DNA of 64,000 nucleotides, taken from assembly GCA_008012115.1 (NCBI GenBank), contig SSEB01000010.1, forward strand, positions 47,407-111,406, given 5' to 3'. The stretch comes from Nevskiaceae bacterium (lineage in GTDB: Bacteria; Pseudomonadota; Gammaproteobacteria; Nevskiales; Nevskiaceae). Numbering within the stretch: the stretch's first letter is position 1; every line of letters begins with the position of its first letter. The notes beneath the pieces were generated by a model. The model made no database searches. It saw only the letters and a program-made list of their open reading frames with translations, and was not told the DNA's origin. Made by a program: the position numbers and the translations under genes. Shown one piece after another: positions 5,417 through 55,984 of the stretch.

Positions 5417-5896
5417 ATGGGCAAGGCCAAAGAAGAAAAAGAAGCTCCGCGCATCATCGCCGTCAATCGCCGCGCGCGCCACGACTACTTCATCGAGCAG
5501 ACCTACGAGGCCGGCCTGTCGCTGATGGGCTGGGAAGTGAAAAGCCTGCGCGAAGGCAAGGCGCAGATCACCGAGGCCTACGTCATCCTCAAGAACCGCG
5601 AAGCCTTTCTGATCGGCGCGCATTTCACCGCCCTCAACAGTGCCTCCACCCACGTCCGTCCCGATGCCATCCGCACCCGCAAGCTGCTGCTGCACGAGCG
5701 CGAGCTGTCGCAGCTGGTCGGCAAGGTCGAGCGCGCCGGCTACACCGTGGTGCCGCTGGACCTGCACTGGAGCAACGGCCGCGCCAAGCTCGCCATTGGC
5801 CTGGCCAAGGGCAAGAAACAGCACGACAAGCGTGCCACCGAAAAAGAGCGCGACTGGAACCGCGAAAAAGAGCGCGTGATGCGGCGCGACCGCTGA
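5417..5896 (+). CDS. smpB: SsrA-binding protein SmpB
   Basis: [43 protein letters not shown]...[29 protein letters not shown]. tmRNA gene 50 bp downstream. Confidence 0.95.
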
Positions 5897-5945
5897 CCGC
5901 AAAGCGGGAACCCCGGCGCGCTGTGGTAGTCTTATGGCTGCTTAC

Positions 5946-6301
5946 GGGGCCGATCCGGATTCGACGGCGACTGGAAAGCTGACGTGCATGCCGAGCTGCG
6001 GTGGATCTCGTAAAACTCTTCCGCAAACAAGCTAGTTGCGAACGACGCGAACTACGCCCTCGCCGCTTAATCCGGTGAGCGTCTGACCGGTTGGTGTTGA
6101 TACCGCCGAATCAGACGTCGACTCATATCAACTCGCGGTGAGGCAGGTCACTGGCCAATCCGCTAAAACCCTAAAGTGAATAAGCGGCGGCGATCCGTGC
6201 CCATCCGGAAGCCACCGACCAAAATCAATGAACGGGCTACGCATGTAGATCGAAGGACGGAAGGTTGTCGGACGGGGGTTCAATTCCCCCCGGCTCCACC
6301 A
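5946..6301 (+). ncRNA. ssrA: tmRNA (ssrA)
   Basis: 5' GGGGCCGATCCGGATTCGACG pairs with 3' CGGCTCCACCA, including the G3:U alanine identity pair. T-arm GGGGGTTCAATTCCCCC. Tag reading frame GCG AAC GAC GCG AAC TAC GCC CTC GCC GCT TAA at 6038-6070 encodes ANDANYALAA. Confidence 0.9.
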
Positions 6302-6379
6302 ACATGGTGATGCGACCAACCACCGCTGCCTAAGTCAGACTAGTAAAGTCAGTGACTTAGCGGCGGTGGTTTTTTATTG
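6296..6379 (+). repeat. attL-like direct repeat (tmRNA 3' end plus terminator)
   Basis: CCACCAACATGGTGATGCGACCAACCACCGCTGCC (6296-6330) recurs identically at 14729-14763. GACTTAGCGGCGGTGGTTTTTTATTG (6354-6379) recurs at 14787-14812 with one mismatch. Confidence 0.85.
6320..6377 (+). terminator. ssrA intrinsic terminator (compound hairpin plus T-run)
   Basis: CCACCGCTGCC pairs with GGCGGCGGTGG. Inner stem TAAGTCA/TGACTTA. Followed by TTTTTT. Confidence 0.8.
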
Positions 6380-14728: not shown

Positions 14729-14812
14729 CCACCAACATGGTGATGCGACCAACCACCGCTGCCCAAACCTGACGCTGCGCGTCACGGACTTGGCGGCGGT
14801 GGTTTTTTATTG
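14729..14812 (+). repeat. attR-like direct repeat with orphan ssrA-type terminator
   Basis: Identical 35-mer at 14729-14763. A hairpin (inner stem TGACGC/GCGTCA) plus GGCGGCGGTGGTTTTTT follows at 14787-14808. No + strand gene reads into it. Confidence 0.85.
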
Positions 14813-18171: not shown

Positions 18172-18861
18172 ATGGGCATTTTTTCCAGACGCAACGACGT
18201 CATCAATTCCGACCTCAGCAAGATGCTGGGCAAGGCCGGCGACCCCGAGAAACTGGTGCGCCTGATCATCCAGGAGATGGAGGACACGCTGGTCGAGGTG
18301 CGCTCCACCGGCGTGCGCAGCATCGCGCGCAAGAAGGAACTGCAGCGCGGCATCGCCGATGCCCAGCACGAGGCACTGGACTGGGAGTCCAAGGCCGAGC
18401 TGGCGCTGAGCAAGGACCGCGAGGACCTGGCCCGCGGCGCCCTCGCCGCGCGCCAGCGTGCGCTCGACCGCGTGCCGGCACTGGAGCGGGAGCTCAAGCT
18501 GATCGACGAGGAACTGGCCAAGCTCGACAGCGACACCACCAAGCTGCGCGCCAAGCTGGCCGATGCCCGCAGCCGCCAGAAGTCGCTGAGCCTGCGCAGC
18601 CAGACCTCCAGCTCGCGCCTGAAAGTGCGCGAACAGCTCGACGACCGCCGCGTCTCGGACACGCTGCAGAAAATGGACCAGTTCGAAAGTCACGTCGAGC
18701 GCCTGGAAGCCCAGGTCGATGCCTACGATCTGGGCCAGCGCACACTCGCCGACGAAATCGCTGCGCTCGCGCCGAACAACAAGATCGAAGACGAGCTGGC
18801 CAAACTGCGCGCGAAGCTGGGCAAAAACACCGCACCCGCCTCATCCGGCACAAAAGAATAA
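18172..18861 (+). CDS. pspA: phage shock protein A
   Basis: MGIFSRRNDVINSDLSKMLGKAGDPEKLVRLIIQEMEDTLVEVR, then coiled coil throughout. Confidence 0.9.
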   Translation: MGIFSRRNDVINSDLSKMLGKAGDPEKLVRLIIQEMEDTLVEVRSTGVRSIARKKELQRGIADAQHEALDWESKAELALSKDREDLARGALAARQRALDRVPALERELKLIDEELAKLDSDTTKLRAKLADARSRQKSLSLRSQTSSSRLKVREQLDDRRVSDTLQKMDQFESHVERLEAQVDAYDLGQRTLADEIAALAPNNKIEDELAKLRAKLGKNTAPASSGTKE

Positions 18862-19552: not shown

Positions 19553-19662
19553 CACCCGCTGTTGCCGTGGAGATCGGATAATTTGTTGTTAATTATTAAT
19601 TGAAAATTAATTCATTAAATAATTAAAAACAAACCAAACCGCCTTTGGCGCGACAGCGGGTG
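19553..19662 (+). repeat. 110-bp GC-clamped AT-core dyad element, copy 2
   Basis: CACCCGCTG at 19553-19561 and CAGCGGGTG at 19654-19662. AT core ATAATTTGTTGTTAATTATTAATTGAAAATTAATTCATTAAATAATTAAAAAC. Begins 24 nt after the pspC stop. Confidence 0.85.
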
Positions 19663-20494: not shown

Positions 20495-20854
20495 TCACCG
20501 CTTGCCGGGTTTCACGCCGAACAGCGCGTTGAGTCCGGATTCGACGATGCCGGCACCGAGCCCGGCACTGGCGCTGACCATCTTGGCCGTGTCCTCCACC
20601 AGCCCGGCGGCGCGCGACTGCGACATCGCGTCGGTGAAACCCTGTGCCACCTGCTTGCGCAGCTCCGGCAGCAGGTCGAGCGCTGCGGCGGTGACGCCAC
20701 TCTTCACGCGTGCCTCGAACTCGATCTGGATCTGCTCCAGGCGCTTGTCGAGCCGCGGCTCCAGCGAGGACTTGTAGAACCAACCGGCGATCATCCAGGT
20801 CAGCAGGCTGGAACACAGCGCGGTCAGCAACAGCATCACGGCATCGTGCAGCAT
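20495..20854 (-). CDS. hypothetical membrane protein
   Basis: Start at MLHDAVMLLLTALCSSLLTWMIAGWFY (TM helix). 119 aa. Divergent from the RND gene. Confidence 0.45.
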   Translation of the reverse strand: MLHDAVMLLLTALCSSLLTWMIAGWFYKSSLEPRLDKRLEQIQIEFEARVKSGVTAAALDLLPELRKQVAQGFTDAMSQSRAAGLVEDTAKMVSASAGLGAGIVESGLNALFGVKPGKR

Positions 20855-21020
20855 GGCGGCATCTCCCCCGGGGCCGGTATCTTTTCGGCCATTCTGCCGC
20901 AAAAGCGCGGGCATGCGCAGGCGCTTCGTGGCAAGCACGGCGCGATTCACTCACAATGCCGAAAACGGATCATGCAAAGGGCGCACGCGGCCCGGCGCGT
21001 GGCAGAACACGGAGGAGCGC

Positions 21021-23363
21021 GTGCTGACCGCCGAGAAAATCCTGGAGCGGGTAATCCCGCTGGTGTATGGCCGCCGCAAACTGACCTTTGCGCTGCTGAT
21101 GGCCGCCACCGCGGCGCTGTTTGCCATGGCCCTGCAGCTGCGGCCGGACGCCGGTTACGAGAAGCAGATTCCGCTCGACCATCCGTACATGAAGGTGTTC
21201 CGGCACTACGAGAAGGCCTTTGGCGGCGCCAACCTGATTTCCATCGCCCTGATCCAGAAGCAGGGCGACATCTACAACGAGCACTTCCTCGACACGCTGA
21301 AGAAGGCCACCGACGAGGTGTTCTTCCTGCCCGGCGTGGACCGTTCGCGCGTGCAGTCGCTGTTCACGCCGGGCGTACGCTACGTCGAGATCGTCGAGGA
21401 CGGCTTTGCCGGCGGCGACGTGGTGCCGCGCAATTACGCACCGAGCCCGGAGATGTTCGCGCTGATCCGCGCCAACGTCGCCAAGGCCGGCATCATCGGC
21501 CGCCTGGTCTCCGGCGACCAGCGCGGCGCCCTGATCACCGCGGAGTTGCTGGAGCACGATCCGGCCACCGGCGAGCGCCTCGACTACCGCGCCGTGGCGG
21601 AGAAGCTGGAAGCCATCCGCGGCCAGTTCCAGGACGACCGCATCGACGTGCGCATCATCGGCTTCGCCAAGGTGGTGGGCGACGTCACCGACGCCAGCCT
21701 GCAGGTGGTCGGCTTCTTCGTGATCGCCCTGCTGCTCACCCTGGGCCTGCTCTGGCTGTTCTGCGGCTCGATCCGGCTGTCGCTGCTGCCGCTGTCGGCG
21801 GCGCTGACGGCGGTGGTCTGGGAACTGGGCCTGCTCGAGCTCGCCGGCTTCGGGCTCGACCCCTTCGCCATCCTCGTGCCCTTCCTGATCCTGTCCATCG
21901 GCGTCTCGCACGGCGTGCAATACATCAACGGCTGGGGCCACGAGGTGGCGGTGCACGGCCGCGATCCGCTGGACGCCTCGCGCGAGACCTTCCGGCGCCT
22001 GTTCATCCCCGGCACCGTGGCCATCGTCACCAACGTTATCGGCTTCGCCACGCTGGCCTTCATCAAGATCGAGATCGTGCAGGAGATGGCGATCAACGCC
22101 GCGCTGGGCATGGCCGCCGTCATCGTCACCAACAAGGTGATGCTGCCGATCGTGCTGACCTGGGTGAAGCTCGATGACGTCGACCAGTTCCGCCGCCGCC
22201 AGAAGGCGCGCGAGGACATGGGCGACCGCCTCTGGCGCAAGGTGGCGGACTTCGCCACGCCGCGCCTGGCGCTGCCGACGCTGGGCCTGGCGCTGCTGGC
22301 GCTGGTCTGGGCGATCTGGATGTATCCCAAGCTGATCATCGGCGACCAGCAGGTCGGCGTGCCGGAACTGCGGCCGGACAGCCGCTACAACGTCGACTCC
22401 CGTGCCATTGCCGACAACTTCATCATCGGCGTCGATCTGCTCAAGGTGATTGCGGAGGCGGAGCCCTATGCCTGCGTGCACCACGAGCGCATGCAGACCA
22501 TCGAGCATTTCGCCTGGACCCTGCAGAACGTGCCCGGCGTGCAGTCGGTGATCTCGCTGCCGCAGATCGCGCGCTCGCTCAACATCGCCGTGCACGAAGG
22601 CTCGCCCAAGTGGTACGTGCTGCCTCGCAACCAGGGCGGGCTGGCGCACATCATCGGCCCGGTGCCCTCATCCGCCGGCCTGCAGAATCCGGACTGCTCG
22701 GTGATGCCGGTGCTGATCTTCACCCAGGACCACCGCGCCGACACCATCCGCCGCATCGTCGATGCCGCCCAGGCCTTCGATACCGCGCACAAGGACGAGG
22801 GCGTGCACTTCGCCCTGGCCTCCGGCAACGTCGGCGTGATGGCCGCGACCAATGCCGAGATCAAGGCGCGCGAGATCGTGGTGATCGTCTGGGTGCACCT
22901 GACGCTGCTGATCTTCGTCTGGATCTCCTTCCGTTCGCTGGCGGCCGTGGTCAGCATCATCACGCCGCTGGTGCTGTGCTCGCTGCTGACCTACGGCGGC
23001 ATGGCCACCATCGGCGTCGGCATGAAGGCGGCGACCCTACCGGTGGCGGCCTTCGGCGTCGGCATCGGCGTCGACGACGGCATCTACCTGTGGAGCGTGC
23101 TGGTGCTCTACCTGCAGCAGGGCGCGACGCTGCGCGAGGCGTATTTCCAGGCCCTGCGCCACACCGGCAAGGCGGTGGTATTCACCTCGCTGTCGCTGAT
23201 CGTGGCGGTGTTCACCTGGCTGTTCTCGCAGCTGCAGTTCCAGGCCGACATGGGCCTGCTGCTGCTGTTCATGTTCACCACCAACCTGTTCGGCGCGGTG
23301 CTCTTGCTGCCGGCGCTCGCTTGGGTCATGGTGAAGCCCGGAACCATCGAGAAGGCGGCATAA
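21021..23363 (+). CDS. RND superfamily transporter (MMPL/HpnN-like)
   Basis: GTG start after GGAGGA. About 780 aa with two 6-TM bundles and two periplasmic loops, and a repeated ...GVSHGVQY.../...GIGVDDGIY... architecture. Followed by DUF1329. Confidence 0.8.
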   Translation: MLTAEKILERVIPLVYGRRKLTFALLMAATAALFAMALQLRPDAGYEKQIPLDHPYMKVFRHYEKAFGGANLISIALIQKQGDIYNEHFLDTLKKATDEVFFLPGVDRSRVQSLFTPGVRYVEIVEDGFAGGDVVPRNYAPSPEMFALIRANVAKAGIIGRLVSGDQRGALITAELLEHDPATGERLDYRAVAEKLEAIRGQFQDDRIDVRIIGFAKVVGDVTDASLQVVGFFVIALLLTLGLLWLFCGSIRLSLLPLSAALTAVVWELGLLELAGFGLDPFAILVPFLILSIGVSHGVQYINGWGHEVAVHGRDPLDASRETFRRLFIPGTVAIVTNVIGFATLAFIKIEIVQEMAINAALGMAAVIVTNKVMLPIVLTWVKLDDVDQFRRRQKAREDMGDRLWRKVADFATPRLALPTLGLALLALVWAIWMYPKLIIGDQQVGVPELRPDSRYNVDSRAIADNFIIGVDLLKVIAEAEPYACVHHERMQTIEHFAWTLQNVPGVQSVISLPQIARSLNIAVHEGSPKWYVLPRNQGGLAHIIGPVPSSAGLQNPDCSVMPVLIFTQDHRADTIRRIVDAAQAFDTAHKDEGVHFALASGNVGVMAATNAEIKAREIVVIVWVHLTLLIFVWISFRSLAAVVSIITPLVLCSLLTYGGMATIGVGMKAATLPVAAFGVGIGVDDGIYLWSVLVLYLQQGATLREAYFQALRHTGKAVVFTSLSLIVAVFTWLFSQLQFQADMGLLLLFMFTTNLFGAVLLLPALAWVMVKPGTIEKAA

Positions 23364-23391: not shown

Positions 23392-23501
23392 CACCCGCTC
23401 TCGCGGTTTTGGCCTGGAGGATTGTTAAAAAATGTATATCAAATCAAAATTCATTAAACTATTTATCACATCTTCCCTGCTGATTCCGGTGCTAGCGGGT
23501 G
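23392..23501 (+). repeat. 110-bp GC-clamped AT-core dyad element, copy 3 (overlaps the DUF1329 start)
   Basis: CACCCGCT at 23392-23399 and AGCGGGTG at 23494-23501. The core aligns without gaps to the other copies (for example offsets 60-69 TCATTAAACT versus TCATTAAATA in copy 2). Begins 28 nt after the RND stop. Confidence 0.8.
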
Positions 23502-24784
23502 CCAAGGTCACGCCTGAAGAGGCGGCCAAACTGGGCACGGAACTGACCCCGATGGGCAGCGGGGTCGCCGGCAACAAGGCCGGCACCATCCCCAAGTGGG
23601 AGGGCGGCCTGCCGCAGAAGACGATGGCGCGTGGCGAGAATCCCTTTGCCGCCGACAAGCCGCTGTACACCATCACCGCGGCCACCCTCGACAAGTACAA
23701 GGACATCCTGACGGAAGGCTACAAGAACCTGTTCAAGACCTATCCCGATTACAAGATGAACGTGTACCCGACGCGTCGCAGCGCGTCGTATCCGCAGTGG
23801 TTCTATGACGCCAGCAAGAAGAACGCGACCACGGTGGAGCTGACCGACAACGGTTACGGCTTCTGCTGCACCACCAGCGGCTACCCGTTTCCGGTCCCGA
23901 AGAACGGCACCGAGGTGATGTGGAATCACATCATGCGCTACAACACCAAGGGCTTTAAGGGCTACCTCGACTCGGCGGCGACGCAGGCCGACGGTTCCTA
24001 CGTGATCCAGCGCGATTACCTGGAGCTGTCCTTCGTCTACAACAACCCCAGGACCACGCTTTCCACCCTCAAGGGCATGAACGTGTACGCCTTCACCAAG
24101 ACGGTGGCGCCACCCAATCTCGCCGGCGAGGCGCACCTGCTGCACGTGCCCATCGACCGCATCAAGGACCAGACCGGCGTCTGGTTCTACAGCCCGTCCG
24201 TGGGCCGCGTGCGGCGCATCGGCGAAGTCGGCTACGACAATCCCCTGTTCGACGGCCTGATGACGCACGACCAGATCGACATGTTCAACGGCCCGCTCGA
24301 CCGCTACACCATCAAGCTGCTGGGCAAGAAGGAAATGCTGGTGCCGTACAACAGCTACATGCTGTACAGCGACAAGCTCAAGTACAAGGACATCATCAAG
24401 ACCGGCCACATCAACCAGGATCTGGCGCGCTACGAGCTGCACCGCGTCTGGGTGATCGAGGCCGAGGTCAAGAAGGGCTTCAACCACCGCTACAAGAAGC
24501 GCACCTTCTACCTCGACGAAGACAGCTGGATCGTCCTGCTGCAGGACATCTACGACGAGCGCGACCAGTTCTGGCGCACGGCCGAGTCCCACGCCATCTG
24601 CTTCGCCAACGTGCCGGTGGTGGTCAACGGCGTGCAGGTGCACTACGACCTGCAGTCGCGCCGTTACGTGATCATCAACATGACCAACGAAGAGAAGAAG
24701 CTGATCGGCTACGACTGGGAGGCCTCTCCGGACTATTTCACGCCGGCCTCGCTGAAGAAATTCGCCGATACCGCTGCCAACTGA
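23432..24784 (+). CDS. DUF1329 domain protein (periplasmic, outer-membrane lipoprotein-sorting-like fold)
   Basis: Signal peptide MYIKSKFIKLFITSSLLIPVLAGA, then the hallmark TPEEAAKLGTELTPMGSGVAGNKAGTIPKWEGG. An in-frame TAA at 23426-23428 rules out a longer N-terminus. Confidence 0.9.
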   Translation: MYIKSKFIKLFITSSLLIPVLAGAKVTPEEAAKLGTELTPMGSGVAGNKAGTIPKWEGGLPQKTMARGENPFAADKPLYTITAATLDKYKDILTEGYKNLFKTYPDYKMNVYPTRRSASYPQWFYDASKKNATTVELTDNGYGFCCTTSGYPFPVPKNGTEVMWNHIMRYNTKGFKGYLDSAATQADGSYVIQRDYLELSFVYNNPRTTLSTLKGMNVYAFTKTVAPPNLAGEAHLLHVPIDRIKDQTGVWFYSPSVGRVRRIGEVGYDNPLFDGLMTHDQIDMFNGPLDRYTIKLLGKKEMLVPYNSYMLYSDKLKYKDIIKTGHINQDLARYELHRVWVIEAEVKKGFNHRYKKRTFYLDEDSWIVLLQDIYDERDQFWRTAESHAICFANVPVVVNGVQVHYDLQSRRYVIINMTNEEKKLIGYDWEASPDYFTPASLKKFADTAAN

Positions 24785-36375: not shown

Positions 36376-36485
36376 CACCCGCTCGGATGCGTTTCCCTAC
36401 GGAATTTGTTTTATTTTATTTATCATTTTTAAAAACGATAAATAAATATTAACTACAGGAGATCGCCCAACACCCAGAGCGGGTG
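36376..36485 (+). repeat. 110-bp GC-clamped AT-core dyad element, copy 4
   Basis: CACCCGCTC at 36376-36384 and GAGCGGGTG at 36477-36485. The near-perfect 30-bp palindrome TTATTTATCATTTTT|AAAAACGATAAATAA (36416-36445) is centred exactly on the element midpoint. Lies between ffs and dnaX. Confidence 0.85.
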
Positions 36486-36515: not shown

Positions 36516-36635
36516 ATGGCGGCGGCCCGTACCAGCGATTCCCGGCACCCGGCGTCACCGTTACCGTTGCTCCCTTCCGGGCCTGGCGGGGTTCGCGGCT
36601 TGCCGTCGCGGGAGGCCGGCACGGGCCACCATTGA
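36516..36635 (-). ncRNA. ffs: signal recognition particle RNA (4.5S type)
   Basis: The reverse complement reads GGUGGCCCGUGCCGGCCUCCCGCGACGG...CCGCCAGGCCCGGAAGGGAGCAACGG...GCCGGGAAUCGCUGGUACGGGCCGCC, with the conserved domain IV GGAA tetraloop region and paired termini. Conserved ffs-dnaX synteny. End positions approximate. Confidence 0.75.
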
Positions 36636-42581: not shown

Positions 42582-42691
42582 CACCCGCTCCGGGTCTTGG
42601 CCGCCGTGCATTTGTTTTATTTTATATATTTAATTTTAATTCAGTAAATTAAATATAACATCATTTTTGCCCCCAGTGATGACAGCGGGTG
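42582..42691 (+). repeat. 110-bp GC-clamped AT-core dyad element, copy 5
   Basis: CACCCGCT at 42582-42589 and AGCGGGTG at 42684-42691. Central AATT-TT-AATT (42632-42641) sits on the exact midpoint. Core offsets 30-39 TTTGTTTTAT are identical to copy 4. Lies in the divergent mrcB / DUF47-pit intergenic region. Confidence 0.85.
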
Positions 42692-43509: not shown

Positions 43510-44516
43510 TGGGCACCCTGCACATCGCCATGGAGATCGTGATCTTCCTGGTGGCGCTGGCGCTGCTGTTCGATTTCATGAACGGCTTCCACGACTCCGC
43601 CAACTCCATCGCCACCATCGTCTCCACCGGCGCGATGAGCCCGCAGAAGGCGGTGGTCTGGGCGGCGTTCTTCAACTTCATCGCCTTCCTGTTCTTCGGC
43701 TTTCATGTCGCCACGACCGTCGGCAAGGGCATCATCGACCCGAGCATCGTCGATCATCACGTGGTGTTCGGCGCGCTGGTCGGCGCCATCAGCTGGAACA
43801 TCATCACCTGGTATTACGGCATCCCCTCCAGTTCCTCGCACGCGCTGGTGGGCGGCCTGGCGGGCGCGGCGGTGGCCAAGGGCGGCACCGGCACCCTGGT
43901 CGCGGCCGGCTTTCTCAAGACCGCGAGCGCCATCGTGCTGTCACCGCTGCTGGGTTTCATCCTCGGCGCCCTGCTCATGGTCGGCGCAGCCTGGAGCGGC
44001 TCGCTGTTCACCGCACGCAAGGCCGACCGCGGTTTCAAGTACCTGCAGTACGTTTCGGCCGCGCTCTACAGCCTCGGGCACGGCAGTAACGATGCGCAGA
44101 AAACCATGGGCATCATCTGGATGCTGCTGATCGCGGCGGGCCTCACCGGCCCGCAGGACTCGCTGCCGTTCTGGGTGGTGCTGAGCTGCCAGACCGCGAT
44201 GGGCCTGGGCACGCTGTTCGGCGGCTGGCGCATCGTCAGGACCATGGGCATGAAGATCACCAAGCTAAAACCGGTGGGCGGCTTCTGTGCCTCGGCCAGT
44301 GGCGCGGCGACGCTGTTCCTGGCCACCAGCCTGGGCGTGCCGGTGTCCACCACGCACACCATCACCGGGTCCATCGTTGGCGTGGGCGCCGCACGCAACG
44401 TCAACGCCGTGCGCTGGGGCATCGCAGGGAATATCGTCTGGGCCTGGGTGCTCACCATCCCCGCCTCGGCCTTCATCGCCGGCGTGGCCTGGTGGCTGGG
44501 ACAGCGCTACTTCTGA
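43509..44516 (+). CDS. pit: inorganic phosphate transporter, PiT family
   Basis: LLFDFMNGFHDSANSIATIVST and second repeat LGHGSNDAQKTMGII...TTHTITGSIVGVG. 335 aa. Confidence 0.9.
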   Translation: MGTLHIAMEIVIFLVALALLFDFMNGFHDSANSIATIVSTGAMSPQKAVVWAAFFNFIAFLFFGFHVATTVGKGIIDPSIVDHHVVFGALVGAISWNIITWYYGIPSSSSHALVGGLAGAAVAKGGTGTLVAAGFLKTASAIVLSPLLGFILGALLMVGAAWSGSLFTARKADRGFKYLQYVSAALYSLGHGSNDAQKTMGIIWMLLIAAGLTGPQDSLPFWVVLSCQTAMGLGTLFGGWRIVRTMGMKITKLKPVGGFCASASGAATLFLATSLGVPVSTTHTITGSIVGVGAARNVNAVRWGIAGNIVWAWVLTIPASAFIAGVAWWLGQRYF

Positions 44517-44641
44517 GACACCGACCCCAGTTTCGGGGGCATCGCCGGGGGCATCGTTCGCTCTGGGCCTGGGTGCTTACCATCCCCGCCTCGGCCTTCA
44601 CTGCCGGCGTGGCCTGGTGGCTGGGACAGTGCTATCTCTGA
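44437..44641 (+). repeat. tandem duplication of the pit 3' terminus (two 80-bp copies with 125-bp period)
   Basis: The 80 bp at 44437-44516 (the last 77 nt of pit coding sequence plus TGA) recur at 44562-44641, also ending TGA, with 6 mismatches. Weaker similarity extends about 20 bp further upstream. Confidence 0.85.
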
Positions 44642-44658
44642 ATCACCGGCTCATCGTC

Positions 44659-55874: not shown

Positions 55875-55984
55875 CACCCGCTCTCGGCGTTACCCGCGGG
55901 CAGACTGTTATTAAATATATATCGTTTGTATTTTCTATCTACAAAATATAACGACTTTACTGGACCATGCACCCGGAGCGGGTG
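55875..55984 (+). repeat. 110-bp GC-clamped AT-core dyad element, copy 6
   Basis: CACCCGCTC at 55875-55883 and GAGCGGGTG at 55976-55984. The core aligns without gaps (offsets 40-49 AATATATATC versus copy 3 AATGTATATC; offsets 70-79 AAATATAACG versus copy 5 AAATATAACA). The centre is degenerate. Ends 18 nt after the stop of the 98-aa membrane protein gene. Confidence 0.8.

Follow-up and report, generated by a model that had tools for sequence, protein, structure and literature searches.

A 110-bp intergenic repeat as the probable source of the start region and predicted signal peptide of a DUF1329 gene in Nevskiaceae

Introduction

The 5' end of a DUF1329 gene in a Nevskiaceae bacterium coincides with one copy of a short interspersed repeat, which raises the question of whether non-coding repeat DNA can become the start region and export signal of a gene. 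The demands on a signal peptide are few (a positive n-region, a hydrophobic core and small residues at -3 and -1), and many unrelated sequences can therefore act as one. An earlier note on this DNA proposed that the copy had been recruited to encode a secretion signal, or had replaced the original 5' end by insertion. Here we describe the repeat family, the gene start that lies in it, and the orthologous loci with and without the element. The window is the whole 64,000-nucleotide stretch of contig SSEB01000010.1 that was analysed.

Results

A dyad-symmetric repeat family

Six copies of a dyad-symmetric repeat are present in the window, each exactly 110 bp long and aligning without gaps. The layout is CACCCGCT, a 24-nt variable spacer, a 46-bp core (GTT...AAC) of about 90% A+T, a second 24-nt variable spacer, and AGCGGGTG; the two ends are referred to as clamps. 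A copy was counted as a member when CACCCGCT and AGCGGGTG were separated by exactly 94 bp and a 46-bp core delimited by GTT...AC, with at least 80% A+T, lay 24 nt from either clamp. The corresponding 21-base search pattern, CACCCGCT-N24-GTT-N41-AC-N24-AGCGGGTG, matched six times, at 1812, 19553, 23392, 36376, 42582 and 55875, against 0.00 matches expected in shuffles. A search with the clamps only, allowing up to two mismatches, returned the same six loci (0.05 expected).

1812 to 1921, unstranded: family copy 1, between convergent genes; syntenic copy in a Stenotrophobium MAG (L032 2745)
19553 to 19662, unstranded: family copy 2, after pspC; syntenic copy in L082; no copy in L003, where an ordinary terminator occupies the site
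23392 to 23501, plus strand: copy 3, spanning the DUF1329 translation start region and predicted signal-peptide codons; identified by pattern match, HMM and gap-free alignment
36376 to 36485, unstranded: family copy 4; distance to the SRP RNA gene (3' end) 40 nt; L077 has no copy at the syntenic site
42582 to 42691, unstranded: family copy 5, between divergent genes
55875 to 55984, unstranded: family copy 6; syntenic copy in a Stenotrophobium MAG (L075 2516)

At least about 85 copies of the family were recovered in total, those outside the window coming from Stenotrophobium MAGs; the scan of a genome collection gave at least 71 loci, and all the matches listed came from three Stenotrophobium MAGs. 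A profile HMM built from 84 copies (nhmmer) scored copy 3 at 58.9 bits (E = 5e-17) and the other five window copies at 59-64 bits. These results indicated that the repeat proposed in the earlier note is real: a dyad-symmetric intergenic element of 110 bp in Nevskiales bacteria, of which 23392-23501 is a genuine copy.

The left clamp was found intact in 6/6 window copies and in 83 of the 85 copies found. The terminal inverted repeat is invariant over 8 bp and extends to 10 bp in 66-75% of copies, and the spacer positions carry approximately 0 bits of information across the family. Between paralogous copies, spacer identity averaged 0.35 with a maximum of about 0.6, and the only similar pairs shared their flanks as well; no two paralogous copies had common spacers, and no recent copies or signs of recent mobility were detected. 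Direct-repeat matches of k = 2-7 were at control level in 87 copies, giving no indication of target-site duplications. Neither the relaxed clamp search nor nhmmer revealed a decayed copy in the window, and no long-range clamp pair that could represent a parent IS was found within it. Syntenic intergenic copies in different genera had clamps that were 94-100% identical, spacers that were 33-44% identical and flanks at random identity. Empty-site comparison for copy 2 was attempted between the window and L003, where the intergenic regions proved unalignable.

Copies are dispersed singly, at about one per 10 kb, and their gene contexts (42 tandem, 17 convergent and 14 divergent, counted with ORFs filtered by GC1 > GC2) are close to random. 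They often lie tight against genes, 3-30 nt from stop codons or with ATGs 1-10 nt past the clamp. Genes that start 1-10 nt after AGCGGGTG are a minority, and the clamp was rejected as a general Shine-Dalgarno sequence. A promoter or terminator cassette was likewise rejected, as the consensus scan of copy 3 for such signals was empty and the gene contexts are near random. MFE folds suggested a long hairpin with compensatory spacer changes, which was not borne out: complementarity of left and right spacers was -9.5 kcal/mol within a copy and -8.9 kcal/mol between copies (p = 0.2). Strict mirror pairing of the spacers was at the chance level of about 40%; of the proposed pairing, only that of the clamps was upheld, together with a weak signal in the core (p = 0.004).

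On metagenomes, the relaxed clamp pattern, applied as a measure of clamp covariation, gave 120 matches, of which 3 were real copies and 117 chance, and viral contigs gave 0 matches. With Rfam 15, the window yielded only tmRNA and SRP RNA; the element had no match, and the best sub-threshold match, from copy 1, reached 26 bits against a cut-off of 65. No specific report of a Nevskiales repeat, or of a signal peptide derived from a repeat, emerged from a literature search, and the family is apparently undescribed.

Copy 3 contains the start region of the DUF1329 gene

Copy 3 lies between an MMPL transporter gene and the DUF1329 gene, with the following features.

20853 to 23363, plus strand: upstream MMPL/RND-like transporter gene (Pfam MMPL); stop 28 nt before the element
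23392 to 23399, plus strand: left clamp CACCCGCT, invariant in window copies
23400 to 23423, plus strand: left variable spacer ("shoulder"), holding the Shine-Dalgarno sequence GGAGGA
23416 to 23421, plus strand: GGAGGA, element positions 25-30, 10 nt before the ATG
23424 to 23469, plus strand: AT-rich core, 46 bp (GTT...CAC), with the TAA, the ATG and codons 2-13 (YIKSKFIKLFIT) inside
23426 to 23428, plus strand: in-frame stop TAA, in the core
23432 to 23434, plus strand: ATG, element position 41
23470 to 23493, plus strand: right variable spacer, encoding the remainder of the hydrophobic region (SSLLIPV + L)
23494 to 23501, plus strand: right clamp AGCGGGTG, read (CT)A GCG GGT G(CC) = L-A-G-A; predicted signal-peptidase I site Ala-Gly-Ala
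23432 to 23503, plus strand: predicted 24-residue Sec signal peptide MYIKSKFIKLFITSSLLIPVLAGA, from feature counts and alignment with homologues
from 23504, plus strand: mature sequence KVTPEEAAKLG, from translation
23432 to 24784, plus strand: DUF1329 (LolA-like) gene, 450 aa (Pfam PF07044)

The gene product matched PF07044 with E = 1.3e-125 (419.9 bits against a cut-off of 23.1) and LolA_like with 47.2 against 30, and it is 100% identical to a Nevskiaceae MAG protein; a PDB sequence search gave no match. The sequence of the copy and the positions of its GGAGGA, TAA and ATG were as the earlier note had given them. Its central claim, that one element copy supplies the ribosome-binding site, the start codon and the entire signal peptide, was also borne out: copy 3 includes the GGAGGA, the start codon at 23432 and the full set of 24 predicted signal-peptide codons, and the conserved mature sequence follows from 23504, the element ending at 23501. 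An upstream start had been said to be blocked, and the in-frame TAA does lie two codons before the ATG; the next in-frame ATG is codon 41 (Met41). No other start gives a signal peptide, because of this TAA and because a start at Met41 would remove an N-terminal stretch that is conserved across all 120 homologues listed. The core of copy 3 has a GC content of 0.17 against 0.65 for the window, and the contrast noted earlier between A/T-rich early codons and a GC-rich remainder was reproduced as a GC3 of 0.29 in codons 2-15 and 0.92 in the rest of the gene.

The translation signals are not general features of the family. A Shine-Dalgarno-like motif occurs in the left spacer of only 7/84 copies, and the ATG-equivalent triplet reads TTA 38 times, ATA 32 times and ATG 3 times, the last of these in DUF1329 copies only. 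The earlier note had misread this position in copy 5 as ATT; the copy at 42582 has TTA, and that at 55875 has ATA. The Shine-Dalgarno sequence and ATG are thus inside the element but copy-specific, and most likely arose in place after insertion. The core is translated only in the DUF1329 copies (about 85 copies examined). The same frame is nevertheless open in 31/168 copy-orientations (18%), giving hydrophobic, I/L/F/Y/N/K-rich peptides that end in xAG.

Predicted mRNA folding from -30 to +42 was -4 to -10 kcal/mol with the element, compared to -29 in Solimonas. Pairing of the two clamps in the mRNA is predicted to enclose the Shine-Dalgarno sequence and ATG (-34 kcal/mol), and in this model could hinder rather than help initiation. 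At 10 nt, the spacing between the Shine-Dalgarno sequence and the ATG is among the longest commonly seen, which counts against co-option of the element as a start region.

The encoded N-terminus resembles a Sec signal peptide

The signal peptide was assessed by simple feature counts and Kyte-Doolittle means rather than with a trained predictor. The n-region is positive (K4, K6 and K9), with zero acidic residues within the first 10. The h-region, for which a length of about 7-15 residues is typical, is LFITSSLLIPVL, with a mean Kyte-Doolittle value of 2.09 in its best 10-residue window (1.9-3.4 in orthologues). The candidate cleavage motif, A22-G23-A24 before K25, aligns with the A-x-A before KV of homologues, and Cys is absent. 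In agreement with the suggestion that the right clamp encodes the signal-peptidase region (LAGA before KV), the clamp reads L-A-G-A and aligned orthologues have A-x-A at the predicted site. The peptide lines up with the signal peptides of the 120 homologues listed, nearly all of which end just before KV. Judged from sequence, the DUF1329 protein would therefore be exported and its signal peptide cleaved.

The element is conserved in register at nine orthologous loci

The element was found in identical register at nine orthologous loci (the window, L081, L082, L001/L002, L003, L013, L078, L079 and L077), with 76-90% protein identity and a locus G+C of 55-67%. All nine place the ATG at core positions 9-11, encode the A-x-A site before the mature N-terminus in the right clamp, and show GTTAnAnnATG, a TATAAC-type core end and largely kept clamps. 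GC3 across the nine is 0.00-0.29 in codons 2-15 and 0.74-0.92 in the rest. Despite sequence turnover, each encodes 1-3 positive charges, a hydrophobic 10-mer and A-x-A before K/H/E-V/A, the cleavage triplet being AGA in 7, ASA in L081 and AVA in L077. GGAG or GAGGAG is kept in 8/9 copies, with GAAAAC instead in L079. The tripeptide FIT, LIT or YIT derives from the conserved core end TATAAC/TATCAC, and the right spacer is better conserved among DUF1329 copies than in the general family, CTGCTGATTCCGG being common to the window and L003. The MMPL stop codon lies inside the element in L079 and L082.

These data bear on whether the overlap could be inert, with translation starting downstream or the gene decaying, and the element merely an intergenic insertion that runs into an annotated ORF. 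The DUF1329 start was indeed chosen by ORF logic only. However, the conserved (A)KVxxxEAAKLG...LTP precedes Met41, the frame is open in 9/9 orthologues although generic copies have on average 1.6 stops in it, the signal-peptide-like features and A-x-A are conserved, and the remaining gene is intact with its GC3 of 0.92. We consider an inert overlap highly improbable.

Two lineages show loss of the DNA-level hallmarks. In L077, where a clamp variant of the ACCGCCT type is seen, the left clamp is lost and the gene survives. The L080/P0006 peptide (MKNLKTIICLLATL...) resembles the element-derived peptides, with a GC3 of 0.71 and the clamps gone, and here too the gene survives; the L080 lineage has later recoded its peptide into GC-rich codons.

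A neighbor-joining tree of DUF1329 proteins did not unite the two element-bearing groups: A+B had a bootstrap value of 26, compared to 81 for A and 66 for B. Because the protein tree leaves A+B at 26, a single origin rests on the shared register. The element could have entered the MMPL-DUF1329 junction two or more times, in groups A and B, through a preferred target and with convergent register. This would fit the failure to recover an A+B clade in the protein tree, the frequent position of elements tight against stop and start codons, and the unrelated spacers of syntenic copies in different genera. Yet the register is nucleotide-identical at nine loci, including the frame through the clamp; no other family member has an ATG at core positions 9-11; groups A and B encode related N-terminal peptides (M-N/I-I-N-K-N-I..-x-I-T); and signs of recent mobility are absent, spacers being unshared between paralogues and target duplications lacking. 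Independent insertions are thus unlikely.

Orthologues without the element

An alignment of orthologues and their upstream regions, as the earlier note had proposed, showed that element-free orthologues (Solimonas and others) carry different, ordinary Ala/Leu-rich signal peptides with GC-rich codons. In Solimonas, GC3 is 0.86 in codons 2-15 and 0.94 in the rest, and the locus showed neither an A/T island nor an nhmmer match. Solimonas fluminis (L004/L005) and the P0013 contig both have a 4-nt overlap of the MMPL and DUF1329 genes, and L203 has a 14-nt gap between them. The window MMPL protein has a shorter C-terminal tail than element-free orthologues (junction comparison with L004). The junction with the element is only about 20 nt longer than that of Solimonas; therefore about 90 nt must also have been lost. 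Among the orthologous junctions compared, no clean empty site or intermediate was found, which counts against the insertion model.

The polarity could in principle be reversed, with the element-bearing 5' end ancestral and the GC-rich peptides of Solimonas and others its ameliorated descendants. Amelioration does occur, as the GC-richer, clamp-free L080/P0006 illustrates, and P0026, nested in group B, has an ordinary peptide. Against this, all more distant clades among the 120 homologues listed have conventional peptides, the tight junctions (-4 nt and +14 nt) recur in three separate element-free lineages, and the Solimonas locus has no trace of an A/T island or element. We regard reverse polarity as quite improbable.

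Discussion

Probable co-option of an old insertion

The results are best explained by an old insertion or replacement at the MMPL-DUF1329 junction, whereby the repeat was co-opted as start region and signal peptide, and we consider this probable. The event is old rather than a recent accident, because nine orthologues keep the register while element-free ones have an ordinary peptide and a tight junction. The earlier idea of a recruited repeat or a replaced 5' end is thus supported by orthologues with and without the element, and is refined to an ancient, conserved arrangement rather than a recent one.

In the proposed history, the ancestral MMPL-DUF1329 junction would have been tight and translationally coupled. 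A copy would have landed there in an ancestor of the present lineage and, with an accompanying deletion, replaced the MMPL 3' tail together with the earlier, GC-rich codons for the signal peptide. Within the core, ATA or TTA would have become ATG by a point change, giving the start codon, and the Shine-Dalgarno sequence would have arisen or been retained in the unconstrained left spacer. The frame through core, right spacer and right clamp would then yield a Sec-type signal peptide: the A/T-rich codons may have provided the Lys, Ile, Phe, Leu and Tyr of the positive n-region and of the beginning of the hydrophobic stretch, which the right spacer would complete, and the clamp, as GCGGGTGCC, would supply the Ala-Gly-Ala of an A-x-A site directly before the conserved KV. 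DUF1329 translation would thereby have been uncoupled from MMPL and would start in an almost structure-free, A/T-rich context. Like export and cleavage of the peptide, the sequence in which the mutations occurred, their single origin and any advantage are inferred.

A possible second function

It is possible, though we hold it with reservation, that the element is a cis-acting site maintained by selection and still operating within the gene, whether as a protein-binding site or through a structure in DNA or RNA. The resulting dual constraint on codons 1-24 would explain the persistent A/T at synonymous sites, which is seen in nine lineages whose genes otherwise have a GC3 of 0.74-0.92. The translated copies retain the core ends GTTA/TAAC and most clamps, syntenic copies across genera keep their clamps while spacers and flanks randomise, and decayed copies are absent from the window. 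At the innermost clamp pair, the orthologous copies show complementary double changes (T.A three times, A.T once and C.G twice, compared to two mismatched states). However, the gene survives in the recoded, clamp-free L080 and in L077 without its left clamp, so the DNA-level features are dispensable there. Moreover, A/T-rich, weakly folded 5' coding ends generally favour translation initiation, and this preference could explain the retention alone. That the element belongs to an undescribed class of maintained chromosomal sites rather than being a decaying selfish repeat, with two codes on the same 72 nucleotides at DUF1329, is doubtful on present evidence.

Comparison with known systems

REP/BIME elements of enterobacteria are abundant, strictly intergenic, often located just past stop codons, dyad symmetric and syntenic over long periods. 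The family described here resembles them in being intergenic, in occurring in all gene-orientation contexts, in its dyad symmetry and in its syntenic persistence. The REP-IHF-REP arrangement (RIB/RIP), two inverted GC-rich ends around an A/T-rich center, is similar in architecture to the 110-bp element. Correia elements of Neisseria (CREE/NEMIS) are 100-150 bp long with terminal inverted repeats and an A/T-rich, IHF-binding center; they affect how neighbouring genes are expressed and, as RNA, form long hairpins. The likeness extends to size, terminal inverted repeats and A/T-rich center, but Correia elements have 26-bp terminal inverted repeats, TA target duplications and conserved interiors, none of which is found here.

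Other assignments were rejected. REPs are GC-rich hairpins of 20-40 bp with GTAG/CGTC heads (PMC3733652). Unlike REPs or REPINs, the present element has conserved ends of 8-10 bp, 94 bp apart, without such heads or local hairpins, and its same-copy spacers are not complementary beyond chance. A classical MITE would agree in terminal inverted repeats and small size, but target duplications and recent copies are lacking. Integron attC sites carry R'' (RYYYAAC) and R' (GTTRRRY) at their outer ends; here GTT and AAC bound the inner core, the opposite arrangement, and the outer ends are CACCCGCT and AGCGGGTG. Nor do the copies form attC cassette arrays next to an integrase, being dispersed singly.

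Rickettsia palindromic elements lie in frame in protein-coding genes, are translated, and are conserved among related species (PMC10969869). Like copy 3, they are small palindromic interspersed repeats inside an ORF that form part of a functional protein. They are inserted internally and contribute an additional peptide segment in many unrelated genes, whereas here only one of about 85 copies, that at DUF1329, has a translated core, and it appears to replace the N-terminus including start codon, Shine-Dalgarno sequence and targeting signal. The same 2024 MITE review makes no mention of a repeat-derived signal peptide (PMC10969869). Coxiella QMITEs overlap gene ends and supply C-terminal residues or stops (PMC5896051), as does this element for the MMPL stop in L079 and L082. 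In QMITEs the internal sequence is conserved, direct repeats are present and recent copies can be recognised; this family, in contrast, has invariant 8-bp clamps, fixed-length, information-free spacers, and neither target duplications nor recent copies. Compared to de novo signal peptides from arbitrary sequence, the raw material here is an identifiable repeat family, and the transition is preserved in several lineages, including the later recoded stage in L080.

Implications

The conservation pattern of the family (invariant 8-bp ends, fixed spacing, information-free spacers and no recent copies) is unlike neutral transposon decay, and the family therefore merits study of its own. For gene callers and signal-peptide annotation in such genomes, A/T-rich 5' ends should not be dropped as artefacts. 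In a GC-rich genome, the A/T-rich cores of repeats are pre-adapted as coding sequence for export signals rich in Lys, Ile, Phe and Leu, and translation of a GC clamp can yield an A-x-A cleavage site. The DUF1329 locus would be a natural example of how non-coding repeat DNA can give rise to a new N-terminal targeting signal, with stages in living lineages that run from the coupled junction (Solimonas) through the intact coding element (window, Stenotrophobium) and eroding hallmarks (L077, L081) to the recoded peptide (L080). If the element does retain a cis-acting function, it would be a bacterial element caught in a dual-coding state, as signal peptide and cis-element at once.

DUF1329 gene start lies within a copy of a repeat element

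The DUF1329 gene encodes a protein identical (100%) to that of a Nevskiaceae MAG. It lies downstream of an MMPL/RND-like transporter gene that ends at 23363 and upstream of a gene encoding a glycine-zipper protein. At the DUF1329 start, G+C falls from about 0.70 to 0.23 (60-nt windows). The window sequence matched the earlier description of the clamps, GGAGGA, A/T-rich stretch, TAA and ATG. A consensus scan of this element copy (copy 3, 23392-23501) identified no promoter- or terminator-like consensus.

Features of the DUF1329 gene start, from the window sequence; the ORF was assigned by Pfam
23392-23399, + strand, left clamp CACCCGCT
23416-23421, + strand, GGAGGA
23424-23469, + strand, A/T-rich stretch, GTT to CAC
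23426-23428, + strand, TAA in frame with the ATG
23432, + strand, ATG of the DUF1329 gene
23494-23501, + strand, right clamp AGCGGGTG
23432-24784, + strand, DUF1329 ORF, 450 aa (Pfam E = 1.3e-125)

Inverted clamp pairs exactly 94 bp apart were found at six positions in the window (1812, 19553, 23392, 36376, 42582 and 55875), and all six copies aligned without gaps. The pattern CACCCGCT-N24-GTT-N41-AC-N24-AGCGGGTG gave six matches in the window versus 0.00 expected, which bears out the proposal that copy 3 is one member of a repeat element. The clamps alone, with two or fewer mismatches, identified the same six loci and no others in the window (0.05 expected). Five of the six copies matched the pattern on both strands, which makes the element dyad symmetric.

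A scan of species representatives (one genome per species) detected at least 71 element loci, those listed all belonging to three Stenotrophobium MAGs, and these loci together with the window copies gave a family set of 84-85 distinct copies. Across this set the clamps are invariant, the inverted repeat is usually extended by positions 9-10 and 101-102 (66-75% paired), and the two 22-24-nt spacers carry essentially zero information (G+C 47%). The 46-bp core has a G+C content of 9.5% across the family, and its consensus is a perfect palindrome (left half GTTATAATTTATTTAATAAATTT, right half AAATTTATTAAATAAATTATAAC). With a profile built from the copies, copy 3 scored 58.9 bits and the five other window copies 59-64 bits; the profile search found no degraded copies in the window. 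The clamp flanks are mirror-biased, with G at position -2 in 51 of 87 copies and C at +2 in 60 of 87, while A is almost absent at -1 and T at +1 (about 87 copies). Given this bias, the conserved unit may extend a few bases beyond the 110 bp.

Element-bearing DUF1329 orthologues

Among the best 120 DUF1329 matches, 12 of the closest homologues (P0001-P0005, P0007-P0012 and P0022) had Asn/Ile/Lys/Tyr-rich N-termini ending in AGA (or ASA, AVA) immediately before KV. The remaining homologues had ordinary Ala/Leu-rich signal peptides, likewise ending immediately before KV. Comparison of orthologues and their upstream regions, the check proposed in the earlier note, agreed with its reading, as relatives without the element had these different, Ala/Leu-rich signal peptides. 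When DNA of the orthologous loci was compared, nine loci held the element in exactly identical register.

Element clamps at nine orthologous DUF1329 loci (L-numbers, loci from relatives)
Window, left CACCCGCT, right AGCGGGTG, exact
L003, left CACCCGCT, right AGCGGGTG, exact
L013, left CACCCGCT, right AGCGGGTG, exact
L081, left CACCCGCA, right TGCGAGTG
L082, left CACCCGCT, right CGCGGGCG
L001/L002, left GACCCGCC, right GGCGGGTG, left spacer one base shorter
L078, left CACCCGCT, right TGCGGGTG, left spacer one base shorter
L079, left CACCCGCC, right GGCGGGTG
L077, left clamp lost, right GGCGGTGG, core intact

In all nine loci the ATG occupies core positions 9-11, the right clamp region translates as A-x-A and the core end (TATAAC/TATCAC/TTCAAC) as x-I/S-T. 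The left spacer ends in a GGAG-type SD at eight loci and in GAAAAC at the ninth, L079. All nine DUF1329 copies were detected by nhmmer (22-59 bits), which gave zero element matches in the Solimonas fluminis locus L004 or in L080.

The GC3 of codons 2-15 was 0.00-0.29 versus 0.74-0.92 for the rest of the gene in the seven element-bearing genes measured; the corresponding values were 0.86 and 0.94 in S. fluminis, which lacks the element at this locus. The identical register and the low GC3 support the proposal that the signal peptide is element-derived. In L080, GC3 was 0.71 in codons 2-15 and 0.92 in the rest of the gene. Its peptide MKNLKTIICLLATLA resembles element-derived ones, e.g. MNINKNIIIFLITCLL, and the locus retains AAAAAATG at the start without clamps; on sequence, it may be read as a recoded descendant of an element-derived peptide. 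Every element-bearing orthologue has one to three positive charges and zero acidic residues among the first ten, a hydrophobic 10-mer (mean Kyte-Doolittle 1.9-3.4) and small residues at -3/-1. These predicted signal-peptide features are thus kept in all of them although the sequence turns over rapidly.

Probable replacement of a coupled gene junction

In S. fluminis (L004/L005) the MMPL stop and DUF1329 start overlap by 4 nt. The identical overlap was found on the P0013 contig, and L203 has a gap of 14 nt; both lack the element. At element-bearing loci the MMPL tail is shortened, and its stop lies before the element or within its left part (L079, L082). In these two loci (L079 3602-3711, L082 7547-7656) the MMPL gene enters the element and its stop codon lies in the left spacer or core edge, so a single copy holds both the MMPL stop and the DUF1329 start.

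Deeper branches of a 70-sequence tree and the rest of the best 120 homologues have conventional signal peptides. The simplest reading of these sequences is that the coupled, GC-rich junction would be ancestral and the element-bearing junction derived. Because the latter exceeds the Solimonas junction by only about 20 nt, the original signal-peptide codons and some of the MMPL tail, about 90 nt together, must have disappeared as well; insertion of the element with this loss would have replaced the original coupled junction. No intermediate was found among the loci compared. In the protein tree, two groups bear the element, with bootstrap values of 81 and 66; their union is not recovered (26). 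The argument for a single origin therefore comes from the relatedness of the peptides and a register shared to the nucleotide.

What the element supplies to the gene

The earlier note had proposed that the element supplies the RBS, ATG and signal peptide. Physically this holds entirely, but the ATG and SD are specific to these copies and are not family features. Across the family the triplet at the ATG position is TTA in 38 copies and ATA in 32, and ATG occurs there in the DUF1329 copies only; an SD-like motif is present in the left spacer of 7 of 84 copies. The signal-peptide frame is stop-free in 31 of 168 copy-orientations, where it encodes hydrophobic and in some cases basic peptides (e.g. 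LYKILIIIVYIITLLIHANGTAG or LLNILILIQLLLTTAISKPTGAG) whose xAG ending comes from the clamp. Judged by these frames, the family is a favourable substrate for a signal peptide, start codon and SD not included.

Among about 85 copies, the core is translated in the DUF1329 copies only. A few other genes appear to start within the right spacer or at the clamp GTG (L048 3850, - strand, MGLAGARKTVVLLGALALCGC; L027 6431, + strand, VALCGLLLALLVGC), and these two starts appear to encode putative lipoprotein-type signal peptides. In several further cases the ATG of a gene follows the clamp by 1-10 nt, as if the clamp GGGTG might serve as their SD.

Persistence of element features

At element-bearing loci the predicted fold of -30 to +42 was -4 to -10 kcal/mol, versus -29 kcal/mol in Solimonas; this weak predicted fold therefore suggests that translational coupling gave way to independent initiation in an open context. 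Element-bearing DUF1329 genes retain A/T at synonymous sites in genomes of 60-67% G+C, and GTTA/TAAC and most clamps are retained in nine lineages. At the innermost clamp pair of the nine loci, complementary double changes (T.A, A.T, C.G) were found versus two mismatched states. This persistence is hard to explain by drift. Either A/T is kept by selection for an unstructured initiation region, or the element's own function continues inside the DUF1329 gene. The whole element has a predicted fold of -34 kcal/mol (z = -4.4), and mRNA pairing between the clamps would place the SD and ATG inside the paired structure, which, in this model, would speak against a simple benefit. L080 and L077 show that hallmarks can be lost while the gene is kept.

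An apparently old and sedentary repeat family

No target-site duplications were found around copies. Copies at non-homologous sites shared no spacer similarity (mean identity 0.35), and the only similar-spacer pairs also share flanks, so there is no sign of recent transposition. Spacer complementarity within a copy was not above that between different copies (p = 0.2); single-copy predictions of a whole-element hairpin therefore rest on the clamps and core. Intergenic contexts were near random expectation (tandem 42, convergent 17, divergent 14), and a stop codon often lies 3-30 nt from the element, sometimes within it.

Syntenic pairs in different genera (copies 1, 2 and 6 with L032, L082 and L075, respectively) had clamp identities of 94-100%; identity in the spacers (33-44%), the cores (52-59%, equal to the family background) and the flanks was no better than random. 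Copy 2 is absent from L003 at pspC-tetR. Copy 4 (36376-36485), which lies 40 nt past the 3' end of the SRP RNA gene (36526-36622, minus strand) and upstream of a dnaX-like gene, is absent beside the SRP RNA in L077, where the syntenic interval is about 80 bp shorter. L077 carries copies of the same AT-core architecture (5830-5939 and 18195-18304) with different, ACCGCCT/AGGCGGT-like clamps, whose distance to the core is 22 nt instead of 24 nt. At its DUF1329 locus the right clamp, GGCGGTGG, is closer to this variant than to GCGGGTG, which hints that clamps may co-evolve in a lineage-specific manner.

These mobility, synteny and presence/absence data therefore indicate that the family behaves as an intergenic element that is old, sedentary and constrained. 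Classification as a MITE failed on the absent target-site duplications and lack of recent transposition, and the element also failed the defining tests for REPs and attC sites. REP/BIME-type repeats, despite the failed REP tests, and Correia-type repeats are its closest analogues. Rfam gave zero matches to the element, viral contigs held zero copies, and no description of the family was found in the literature. The family appears undescribed so far, and its constraint pattern is unusual.

A second repeat, CCGAYACGGTGCTTGCCCGAAGGGCAATGGGYGCGGGAGGCACCC, directly adjoins the clamps at four Stenotrophobium loci (L060 ~871, L036 ~1143, L057 and L065), and a similar sequence adjoins the copy at L032 2745; by their positions the two families seem associated. 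Elsewhere in the window, a tmRNA gene (5946-6301, Rfam 190.9 bits) is followed by about 8.4 kb of ORFs with low GC3. This region, with the tmRNA 3' end present as a 45-nt direct repeat at both boundaries (6296-6340 and 14729-14773, 91% identical), resembles a prophage or genomic island inserted in ssrA. An 87-nt direct repeat (44437-44523 and 44562-44648, 91% identical, 125 nt apart), both copies of which end in a stop codon (...WWLGQRYF* and ...WWLGQCYL*), appears to reflect duplication of a gene's 3' end.

The presence of an element copy at the DUF1329 start was confirmed, and its interpretation as an element-derived secretion signal is supported. Palindromic repeats are used in frame in Rickettsia (RPEs; PMC10969869), and gene ends are donated by repeats in Coxiella (QMITEs; PMC5896051). 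What is new relative to RPEs and QMITEs is that one repeat copy gives both the start site and a complete, conserved predicted secretion signal.
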